Origin: Escherichia coli
GTDB lineage: Bacteria > Pseudomonadota > Gammaproteobacteria > Enterobacterales > Enterobacteriaceae
Assembly: GCF_003334785.1 (NCBI RefSeq)
Contig: NZ_QOWV01000042.1
Length of the DNA stretch: 5,682 nt
Strand: one strand, 5' to 3'
Each line of letters opens with the position of its first letter. Within the stretch, counting starts at the first letter, position 1. A program made the position numbers and the translations under genes. Positions 1 through 1,501 of this stretch are shown here, in pieces. A model generated the notes under the pieces. That model made no database searches. It was not told the DNA's origin and was given only the letters and a program-made list of their open reading frames with translations.

Positions 1-70
1 GGTCATCGCCGAAACTGACGGTTTTCAGACTCTTGATCTCATCGTCCAGATAGCGGTTCAGCTCGAGGTG
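1..70. repeat. Left-edge remnant of the 75-bp tandem repeat array (same unit as 5101-5610); followed by a degenerate copy to ~120
   Basis: Positions 1-69 (ggtcatcgccgaaactgacggttttcagactcttgatctcatcgtccagatagcggttcagctcgagg) match the 75-bp units at 5155-5605 nearly base for base. The array evidently continues left of the window. Confidence 0.9.
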
Positions 71-229
71 TTCATAATCTTCACTGACGCTAAAACTCTT
101 AACATTTTGTAGCATCTTATATTCGTACTTCAGCTTCTCTATTAACTCATTACTTAAATCATCAAGAGCATCATGGTCATATTTCGATGACATCAGATGC
201 GATTTTTTAATCATAAATCTGCCATCCAT
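1..229 (-). CDS. Hyper-acidic 25-aa tandem-repeat protein, N-terminal 76 codons only (5' partial at window edge); start ATG at complement(227..229)
   Basis: The minus strand reads AAGGAG (complement of 236-241), a 6-nt spacer, then ATG. Translation is MDGRFMIKKSHLMSSKYDHDALDDLSNELIEKLKYEYKMLQNVKSFSVSEDYEHLELNRYLDDEIKSLKTVSFGDD..., which leads in frame into the LNRYLDDEI.SLKTVSFGDDHELLE repeat. The frame stays open to position 1, so it is absent from the ORF track only because it is truncated. The start lies 13 nt after the stop of the upstream 416-aa gene, so the two form an operon. Confidence 0.7.
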   Translation of the reverse strand, partial: MDGRFMIKKSHLMSSKYDHDALDDLSNELIEKLKYEYKMLQNVKSFSVSEDYEHLELNRYLDDEIKSLKTVSFGDD

Positions 230-242
230 ATGATACTCCTTC

Positions 243-1406
243 TTACTCTGTTATTGATGAAAGGATTGAGCTCATCTTCTGAATAGAAGATAACTTTCCT
301 TTCATTAGAAGTCTAATTTTAGCCATTATCTCAGGATCTGTCGCAGATTCTAGCTTTTTAGATAGACCAGCAATTTCTGCCTTTTCTCTTTTTATTCTGT
401 TTTCTAGGAGTGCTCGGTGTTCACTGTTGCTTGTGTTACTTCCAGCTCCATACCCATTCCCTGTTGAAATGTTGAGGTTTTCGGTGTTTATTTTAAGATC
501 GAATGCGTTGTTTATATTTAAGATTAGTTCTTTTGTGTTTATTACATCAAAAAATTGAACGCTTGAGTTATTTAGCATTTCCTCTCTTAATATAGCGTGA
601 ACGCCTTTGTTTTCTCTATTTTCTTTATCTCTACCAACTTTAAATATGAAGTCATCTTTTGCATCATTAGTGATTAGGAAAACGTTTTTCGCACCTGTTG
701 ATGCGGCATGCTCTAGAGTTTCTTTCCATATGTAGAAATCACCATAAGCTCTTTGATAAGTAATGCCGTCATAAGAGAATATATTGTCTGGCTTTCCTAC
801 CTTGTCTGCGTCACAGAATCCAGGGGGCGTTTTTAATTCATACCTTGATTTACATTCAGCATCTAATCCATTAATGTATTCTTGGTCCTTTTTTACGCCT
901 ATTTTTCCAGAGAATATGTTGTCAATCCATTCTCTATGTATGTCTTTTGTATTTAACTCATCAATTGATTCATTGAGTTTTCCATACATATCCTCTAGTC
1001 CTGAGTTTAATAAATCAATGGATTTTTTTATTAACTCAGATACTTGTCTGTTTAGCCCTTCGTAATGCCTTGCTTTGGAGTTGTTGCATTTTTCTAATAG
1101 TTTTGATGAATAAGATAATAAATCAACAACAGGAGATGTTGTTGTTGATATCAAGTGTTTCTGATCGTCGATAACCCCTAATCTTCTTCTCTGATACTCC
1201 AACGCAGTAAAATAAGGGAGATATATATTTTCTCTTATCTGTTCTATTGATTTCTTTATCGCAGATATTGTTTCCTGGTTGTTTCTATATAGGTCTAATA
1301 TGACATTGGTGTCAAAAACAAATAATGTATCATCTGCCCTGTATATATCAGGATTGTCCTTTATGTTGCCTGTATAAAATCCTTTAAACATATCCCTCAT
1401 CGACAT
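243..1406 (-). CDS. PIN-like (VapC/PhoH-PIN type) predicted nuclease with a large insertion between the first and third catalytic motifs; C-terminal predicted coiled coil. Function unknown. Longest open frame extends to 1493 (416 aa, TTG first codon)
   Basis: This is a 1.2-kb open frame on the minus strand. I prefer the start at ATG complement(1404..1406), which has AGGGG 6 nt upstream. The 29 codons above it up to 1493 have no ATG with a ribosome-binding site. Motifs support a PIN domain. DTLFVFDTNVILDLY gives the beta1 acidic residue, LEYQ gives a glutamate about 40 aa later, and NVFLITNDAKDDFIF about 215 aa later matches the VapC-type hhTxN/DxxDF third/fourth acidic motif. GDFYIWKETLEHA precedes the last of these. 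GC content by eye is about one third, against about 55% in the backbone. The fold call comes from motif recognition only. Confidence 0.75.
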   Translation of the reverse strand: MSMRDMFKGFYTGNIKDNPDIYRADDTLFVFDTNVILDLYRNNQETISAIKKSIEQIRENIYLPYFTALEYQRRRLGVIDDQKHLISTTTSPVVDLLSYSSKLLEKCNNSKARHYEGLNRQVSELIKKSIDLLNSGLEDMYGKLNESIDELNTKDIHREWIDNIFSGKIGVKKDQEYINGLDAECKSRYELKTPPGFCDADKVGKPDNIFSYDGITYQRAYGDFYIWKETLEHAASTGAKNVFLITNDAKDDFIFKVGRDKENRENKGVHAILREEMLNNSSVQFFDVINTKELILNINNAFDLKINTENLNISTGNGYGAGSNTSNSEHRALLENRIKREKAEIAGLSKKLESATDPEIMAKIRLLMKGKLSSIQKMSSILSSITE

Positions 1407-1501
1407 AAAAAAGCCCCTATTATTCATTTCTGTTTTGTTCTTTTCGTCAGTTGCTGACTCTTGTGTCAACATCAAAATCAATCGATCATGCAAATGATCT
1501 C

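Follow-up and report, generated by a model that had tools for sequence, protein, structure and literature searches.

A predicted PIN_8-family nuclease gene and a leucine-rich-repeat-like partner gene as paired cargo of small mobile plasmids

The DNA considered here is a 5682-nt stretch of Escherichia coli contig NZ_QOWV01000042.1 (the window, by which we mean the whole stretch that was analysed), and it is a mobilisable ColE1-type plasmid. Its minus strand carries a cargo of two genes, in which gene 1 encodes a member of the PIN_8 family and gene 2, reached after a gap of exactly 13 nt, encodes an acidic protein built of 25-aa repeats. The two genes recur together on other mobile backbones, and we suggest that they may specify a nuclease and the protein that regulates it.

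Two adjoining genes in a colicin slot

Gene 1 matches the Pfam PIN_8 profile (PF18476) with 143.6 bits, against a cut-off of 26.1, at E 1.2e-41 and over profile positions 1-218 of 227; the match to PIN_12 is weaker. An earlier reading of the window, made from the sequence only, had recognised no named family in this protein. That claim did not survive, and RefSeq already labels the gene product “PIN-like domain-containing protein”, while phrog_9788, of unknown function, matches it along its full length. The longest open reading frame (ORF) spans 243..1493 on the minus strand and would give a maximum of 416 aa, and the NCBI annotation pipeline (PGAP) places the start in relatives at 1472; the true start is most likely the ATG at 1406, since all close homologues begin MSM(K/R)..F(K/R)GFYT. 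In an alignment of 35 homologues, numbered over 409 aa and all matching PIN_8, thirteen columns are invariant and the PIN acidic set is among them: D54, E92, D245, K272 and D274 never vary, and D270 is kept in at least 90% of the sequences. These residues include those of the DTNV, E and TNDxxDF motifs which the sequence-only reading had matched to a PIN catalytic set, and which are thereby confirmed as invariant or nearly so. Gene 1 is a PIN_8 member with intact catalytic residues, and a metal-dependent nuclease activity is predicted for it.

In an AlphaFold 2 model of gene 1 (predicted local distance difference test, pLDDT, 82.9) the protein adopts a PIN-like alpha/beta fold whose two halves form one interrupted domain. 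A long helical hairpin (residues 87-175) breaks into the PIN strands after strand 2, the inserted region includes an invariant PPGFxD motif, and a second helical hairpin ends the protein (residues 349-406, or about 327-384 in the 387-aa numbering). The “split” PIN domain and C-terminal coiled coil described from the sequence are real in so far as the insertion and the C-terminal hairpin are both there, but the split is not peculiar to this gene, being normal PIN_8 architecture that the family profile covers. PIN_8 was defined by Matelska et al. (2017; PMC5499597), who placed it in the VapC group with 4-5 active-site residues and an unknown function, and who described for the related DUF4935/PIN_12 family a long helical insert after strand 2 and genes that are mostly monocistronic. 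The short C-terminal hairpin is common to the plasmid-borne clade to which gene 1 belongs, and solitary homologues have C-termini that vary and carry no Pfam domain. No match was found in a PDB sequence search with the gene 1 profile. Upstream of gene 1 we looked for a LexA box and found none, and a simple promoter scan of the same region gave no convincing promoter.

The junction between the genes is compact. The gene 1 stop codon, a consensus ribosome-binding site (RBS) and the gene 2 start codon follow each other in the order TAA-AAGGAG-N6-ATG (Table 1), a spacing already noted in the sequence-only reading and conserved in relatives, namely in loci L004, L005, L007, L009, L017 and L019, whose backbones are given below. 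The Shine-Dalgarno sequence of gene 1 is weak or absent in all six homologues and that of gene 2 is consensus, which fits a partner made in excess.

Gene 2 was first described as lying with gene 1 within positions 1..1493. In fact only its first 76 codons are there, and what they encode is the same, residue for residue, as positions 1-76 of the intact protein (346 aa) of the E. coli ECOR 10 plasmid pIII; the repeat array lies at the other end of the window, where Tandem Repeats Finder (TRF) counts 6.6 copies of a 75-nt repeat at 5125..5621. This 3′ part is 99.9% identical to locus L002 as far as 5621. The last 61 nt align with the segment 85..145 at about 68% identity, gap-free and in frame, contain a TAG, and are absent from the ECOR 10 plasmid and from every related locus. 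Joining 5682 to 1 yields no single ORF (the product reads ...SFGDDLN*), and because end-joining fails and the tail holds an in-frame stop, gene 2 of the window is either a broken or rearranged allele or mis-assembled at the repeat array. The records of E. coli FDAARGOS_1248 and Klebsiella variicola are split at the same place, in the repeat array. Intact alleles (L002 and L017) encode 346 aa, in which a 56-aa N-terminus is followed by 11 repeats and closed by a short cap; the L018 allele encodes 121 aa with 2 repeats, and the number of repeats ranges from 2 to 11 among alleles.

That gene 2 is translated is suggested by what its alleles keep in common: their repeats, 25-29 aa long, can barely be aligned, and yet the RBS, the ATG, the frame and an N-terminal motif, M(N/S/D)(D/E/G)(R/N/H)(S)F, are maintained. 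The 346-aa protein has 24% acidic and 15% basic residues, a net charge of -32 and an isoelectric point (pI) of 4.7, and the translation of its N-terminus has no hydrophobic signal-like stretch. Its net charge per repeat runs from -1 to -5 with a mean of about -2.7, well short of the figure of roughly -6, and of the extreme polyanion, proposed in the sequence-only reading.

An exhaustive phmmer search of 1.84 billion representatives with gene 2 returned its own family and a set of long proteins, at E down to 1e-18, and in 5 of the 7 long proteins tested we found Pfam LRR_5, the leucine-rich repeat (LRR) of BspA type. Gene 2 aligns with these proteins gap-free over 4-6 repeats, in a 25-residue register and with the shared pattern SLxxVxFGxxxxLxxL/I(N/G)xY, as in the pairing of SLKTVSFGDDHELLELNRYLDDEIM with SLtsVnFGeeSqLisiGnyAFegCt. 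The real sequence scores 36-82 bits, and controls in which the columns of the repeat were permuted, leaving composition and period unchanged, come to about 0 bits. A single-sequence AlphaFold 2 model of low confidence (pLDDT 55) has one strand and one helix per repeat, and the best Foldseek matches of that model are COI1, the ribonuclease inhibitor 1a4y (second-best, with a template-modelling score, TM, of 0.62), the LRRs of NLRP proteins, and Skp2. On the strength of these alignments and of the model, gene 2 looks like a cytoplasmic acidic solenoid of 25-aa repeats resembling the BspA-type LRR. A word-indexed homologue search with the 346-aa protein found none, and a PDB sequence search found designed helical-repeat proteins only. 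Matches from Pfam, NCBIfam and PHROG (among them DUF7671, ARC6-like, phage_HTJ and phrog_30419) were set aside as spurious, being sums over repeats with little or no support in any one stretch.

Table 1. Features of the window (5682 nt) and their coordinates
Feature	Position	Strand	Basis or remark
Gene 2, 5′ part: 56-aa non-repeat N-terminus and first repeat	1..229	-	translation; runs off window start
Gene 2 start codon, ATG	229..227	-	
Gene 2 ribosome-binding site, AAGGAG	236..241	-	6 nt before ATG, inside the 13-nt gap
Gene 1 stop codon, TAA	245..243	-	
Gene 1, PIN_8-family (VapC-group PIN-like) predicted nuclease, 387 aa	243..1406	-	Pfam PIN_8 and homologue start alignment
Antisense ORF over gene 1	427..1065	+	
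Inverted repeat TCAATCGATCAT / ATGATCTCTTGA, 12-nt arms, 4-nt gap	1478..1505		between RNAI terminator and gene 1
RNAI antisense replication regulator	1543..1645	-	Rfam RF00106, 76.5 bits, E 2.6e-13
Relaxase ORF, two pieces	3048..3545 and 3650..4639		split by 26-nt insertion
Perfect 26-nt tandem duplication GGCAGACAGGCCGAGAATTGATGCCT, 2.3 copies	3425..3483		within mbeA-like relaxase gene
cer-like Xer site core, GGTGCGTACAA-TGGGATG-TTATGGTAAAT	5058..5086	+	pattern match; 14 nt from gene 2 stop codon
Gene 2, 3′ part: 75-nt (25-aa) repeats, consensus LNRYLDDEIMSLKTVSFGDDHELLE, short C-terminal cap, stop	5101..5621	-	TRF; ORF 5101..5652
Antisense ORF over repeat array, 173 aa	5161..5682	+	
Anomalous 61-nt tail	5622..5682	-	diverged copy of gene 2 pre-repeat segment 85..145

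The sequence-only reading had also proposed that a ColE1 backbone flanks an AT-rich minus-strand operon placed where colicin plasmids carry their colicin genes, and each part of this is borne out. RNAI, the sole match in an Rfam scan of the window, sets one edge of the cargo slot and the cer-like site sets the other; ORFs for rop, MobC-like, MbeB and MbeD proteins lie on the backbone; and gene 1 with the gene 2 N-terminus has 32-37% GC, against about 55% for the backbone. The cargo sits where a related plasmid has colicin genes: in CP056931.1, a colicin S4 plasmid from the same replicon cluster, this slot is taken up by csa/csi/csl. A 30-nt cer sequence gave no match, and the core in Table 1 was found from two 11-nt arms, which we take to be those of ColE1 cer, matching with a 7-nt spacer. 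Positions 1..5621 are 99.9% identical to ECOR 10 plasmid RCS83_pIII (NZ_LT985292.1, 5912 bp, circular), and near-identical copies of the plasmid occur in K. variicola and E. coli FDAARGOS_1248. The cassette measures 2.3 kb on the 5.9-kb plasmid of the ECOR 10 reference strain, and it is present in 1 of 5426 complete E. coli genomes.

Some further observations on this plasmid are set out here. The repeat array of gene 2, at about 50% GC, is nearer to the backbone than to the rest of the cargo in composition. Of the two antisense ORFs in Table 1, the one over the array is an expected by-product of an in-frame tandem repeat and does not in itself point to a gene. The inverted repeat precedes the gene 1 start by about 70-100 nt; it may serve as an operator, or it may belong to the RNAII promoter region. 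Compared with L017, whose 521-aa relaxase is intact, the tandem duplication in the mbeA-like gene amounts to one insertion of 26 nt, and the annotation of ECOR 10 pIII shows only a 165-aa relaxase fragment; because the duplication splits the relaxase ORF, the window plasmid is probably defective for mobilisation, and so, probably, is ECOR 10 pIII.

Spread of the pair and of wider PIN_8 relatives

Every locus that we fetched with gene 1 at 56-100% identity has an acidic tandem-repeat ORF 12-13 nt downstream, behind AAGGAG, and the pair is found on at least six backbones, several of them unrelated. These comprise ColE1/MOBP plasmids (the window, L002, L017 and L018), Rep3 plasmids with MobA/TraD from Proteus mirabilis and metagenomes (L004, L005 and L006), Rep3 plasmids with a Tle1-like lipase (L009 and L010), contigs of unknown replicon (L007 and L008), and an 18.9-kb contig with a tyrosine integrase near the pair (L019). 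As judged from these loci, the pair is a conserved unit that moves between mobile backbones, and gene 2 is its fast-evolving member. We also note that in L009 (1290..4402) the plasmid carries, beside the pair, an 868-aa Tle1-like lipase gene of type VI secretion system kind and a DUF3304 gene, the lipase adding another cargo of conflict type to this small plasmid.

Beyond this clade the association dissolves. Relatives at 40% identity or less are solitary, as on a Commensalibacter chromosome, in an integron-like cassette array of Vibrio vulnificus, and on plasmids of Psychrobacter and Cronobacter. PIN_8 genes that stand alone and keep these catalytic residues are common, and the nuclease would therefore not generally need an inhibitor. 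The nearest neighbours of distant homologues are a heterogeneous set, among which about 10 of 149 match PADLOC models and 4 are integrases. In IMG/VR, 164 contigs encode relatives, which are mildly enriched near contig ends (13 observed within 2 kb, 6.5 expected).

Three relatives have surroundings that deserve description in their own right. The solitary PIN_8 gene of Cronobacter sakazakii plasmid pCrono589-2 (L016, 4007..7514) adjoins a pair encoding a nucleotidyltransferase and an S-4TM effector, resembling a cyclic-oligonucleotide-based antiphage signalling system (CBASS), together with a tgtA5-cluster gene, and the region looks like a defence island. Two ColE1-type plasmids, pC51_006 of Klebsiella pneumoniae (L013, 362..3151) and pHW114B of Rahnella (L015, 3053..5929), encode a PIN_8 protein of greater length (574 aa in L013) as part of a different, three-gene arrangement, in which ORFs of about 220 aa and 91 aa precede it. 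The 220-aa protein has a sub-threshold match of Abi_2 or RiboL-PSP-HEPN-like type. The PIN gene of pHW114B is annotated in two pieces, and the Rahnella plasmid paper does not discuss this homologue.

A candidate nuclease-regulator module and its rivals

We suggest that the cargo is a mobile module of a PIN_8 nuclease and an LRR-like regulator or inhibitor, serving phage defence or plasmid addiction, and we would give this reading a probability of about 0.45. Gene 2 would be translated from the mRNA of gene 1 through its much stronger RBS, and the LRR-like protein would bind the nuclease, possibly at the C-terminal helical hairpin specific to the clade. It would there hold or gate the nuclease, much as the acidic LRR ribonuclease inhibitor does with RNases or LRR sensors do with immune effectors. 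Loss or titration of the partner, whether by phage infection or by loss of the plasmid, might then release the nuclease, which would cut nucleic acid of the cell or of an invader. The likeness of gene 2 to an LRR is what makes us favour a protein-binding partner, as inhibitor or sensor, over a DNA mimic. A role in conflict also agrees with several traits of the family, namely its relatives on 164 viral contigs, its presence in an integron-like cassette array and beside a CBASS-like pair, and the PADLOC matches among its neighbours, and with the changing number of repeats between gene 2 alleles. A sharper form of the proposal, which we advance more tentatively, is that the operon represents a two-component conflict system not described before, with a bacterial LRR protein of the cytoplasm inhibiting a PIN_8 nuclease or sensing on its behalf.

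Several results weigh against this proposal. The LRR assignment leans on a model of pLDDT 55 and on E-values that the repeats inflate. Gene 2 proteins do not reach the Pfam LRR cut-offs: against the LRR_5 profile (PF13306) the window and L002 proteins give no match at E up to 10, and the best relative, from L008, scores 13.9 bits with a cut-off of 27.7 (E 0.05). The L005- and L007-type proteins, moreover, do not match the LRR_5 proteins. Gene 2 is not intact in the window itself. In species-representative genomes we find 513 PIN_8 loci, and the best 80 of these 513 are all without such a partner; that most PIN_8 genes lack one counts against gene 2 as an antitoxin obligatory for the fold. Housekeeping genes are frequent among the neighbours of distant homologues. 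Neither gene is represented in PADLOC-DB v2.0.0, where gene 1 has no match at E up to 1 and gene 2 gives only repeat-driven noise, and our literature search found no experimental report on any PIN_8 protein. Gene 1 has no match in NCBIfam either, and literature searches on PF18476, on LRR with PIN and anti-phage, and on BspA-like with toxin-antitoxin gave nothing relevant to the pair. As far as these searches show, the PIN_8 and LRR-like operon is undescribed and matches no known system, which supports the sequence-only reading, the family of gene 1 being already on record.

The most familiar alternative is a type II toxin-antitoxin or addiction system, in which the PIN protein is a constitutive toxin, the acidic repeat protein its labile antitoxin, and plasmid-free cells are killed. 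Much about the locus would suit it: PIN_8 falls in the VapC group, the genes form a tight bicistron on plasmids, the acidic partner has the stronger RBS, and toxin-first operons are known, for example higBA and mqsRA. We nevertheless consider it unlikely, and the classical VapBC-like form of it is weaker than the favoured reading because of the gene order, the sizes of the proteins, the numerous solitary homologues and the lack of an antitoxin that binds DNA. The partner, a repeat protein of 120-346 aa, matches no DNA-binding domain, and alleles with only 2 repeats occur; the stretch from the RNAI terminator to gene 1 holds no antitoxin ORF; and the nuclease has 387 aa where a VapC has roughly 130 aa. 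Homologues with identical catalytic residues that stand alone on chromosomes, prophages and plasmids are hard to square with constitutive toxicity. It is also conceivable, at rather longer odds, that the cassette is cryptic or decaying cargo which hitch-hikes without a current function and is degenerate in the window, where gene 2 is interrupted and the relaxase frameshifted by the 26-nt duplication, and the rarity of the pair in complete E. coli genomes (1 of 5426) would agree with this. Gene 1, however, is intact with every invariant residue present, the pair is intact on several unrelated backbones at 56-100% identity, and the break in the window falls inside a repeat array, a structure that short-read assemblies often collapse.

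Two further readings would give gene 2 a different part to play, and we think both improbable. As a DNA mimic it would be an anti-restriction or anti-defence factor that aids plasmid establishment, with a separate role for the nuclease; a pI of 4.7 and a net charge of -32 over 346 aa might be called to its support, as might the regular solenoid, which could show its charge periodically. The charge density is about -0.09 per residue, however, with 15% basic residues, and the classic mimics Ocr and ArdA are of far higher negative charge density. No match to ArdA or another anti-restriction family was found in Pfam, NCBIfam or PHROG, the repeat pattern agrees with protein-binding LRRs, and a spacing kept strictly at 12-13 nt from the nuclease gene, whichever the backbone, points to a joint function, so that this reading is weaker still than the VapBC-like one. 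The 75-nt repeats might instead act as RNA, the nuclease processing them as in a type III (ToxIN-like) antitoxin array, and the ORF would then be incidental. Tandem repeats and an RNase-type fold do meet at one locus, and the array is open on both strands, as any in-frame repeat would be. This reading is largely excluded, the least probable of all those considered: relative to shuffled sequence the repeat RNA of the window is less stable (z +2.36) and that of L005 is only marginally more stable (z -1.93), the window value counting against an RNA antitoxin; the RBS, ATG, N-terminal motif and frame are conserved over repeats of diverged sequence and variable length; no terminator-like site was found in 4900..5682; and the array is downstream of the nuclease gene, a position it is not known to take in type III systems.

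If the favoured nuclease-regulator reading is correct, the pair would be a bacterial counterpart of the ribonuclease inhibitor, or else a split LRR-sensor/effector pair, and variation in the number and sequence of the repeats would tune what releases the nuclease. As a cassette for phage defence or addiction the module would pass from one small plasmid to another, forming a new class of ColE1-type plasmid cargo beside the colicins, and the widespread PIN_8 family would gain its first known function. The coupling of a nuclease to a cytoplasmic LRR-like protein would be unusual in bacteria, and it would echo both the ribonuclease inhibitor and LRR immune sensors. We note that the plasmid clade is the only place where we found PIN_8 with a fixed partner, and hence offers an experimental handle on the family. 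The cassette is small and easily cloned.

Comparison with known systems

The locus shares with VapBC a PIN-fold nuclease, a tight two-gene operon on mobile DNA and an acidic partner, but here the nuclease gene comes first, its product is about three times the size of VapC and carries an insertion, and the partner, a repeat protein of 120-346 aa, lacks the DNA-binding domain (of AbrB, ribbon-helix-helix, helix-turn-helix or Phd type) that the upstream antitoxin of VapBC has; homologues without any partner also exist. From the type III ToxIN-like systems it differs in that the repeats are downstream, the nuclease is PIN_8 and not ToxN, and the repeat RNA of the window shows no excess of stability over shuffled sequence (z +2.36).

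Nuclease colicins have an acidic inhibitor gene that follows the nuclease gene, and colicin cassettes occupy the same slot as the cargo described here, from the mob/cer region to the replication primer region. The window cargo is distinguished from them by having no lysis gene, no upstream LexA box and no colicin Pfam domains, and by belonging to a family that is solitary in chromosomes and prophages. A colicin-like bacteriocin, brought to mind by the long helical hairpins and by the slot, was considered and rejected because of those solitary homologues and the lack of a lysis gene or SOS box.

For the partner, the closest likeness in sequence is to the BspA-type LRR_5, expected to have repeats of about 23-25 aa with the pattern LxxVxFxxxxxLxxIGxxAF; gene 2 keeps a 25-residue period, but the usual AFxxC half is replaced by LDDEI, and where some of the LRR_5 matches carry secretion or surface domains (Por_Secre_tail, Listeria-Bacteroides repeat), gene 2 is short and has no signal-like stretch. 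The pairing of an acidic strand-plus-helix solenoid with a nuclease recalls the ribonuclease inhibitor with RNase A or angiogenin (1a4y), and the LRR sensors of NLR proteins. This likeness is one of fold class only, taken from the pLDDT-55 model, with no homology to the ribonuclease inhibitor and no NTPase domain, and the ribonuclease inhibitor has repeats of 28-29 aa. With the PIN_8 family at large, finally, gene 1 shares the profile match, the 4-5 acidic active-site residues and the long helical insert, and what sets the plasmid clade apart from the rest of that family is the short C-terminal hairpin together with an obligate downstream gene for a repeat protein.

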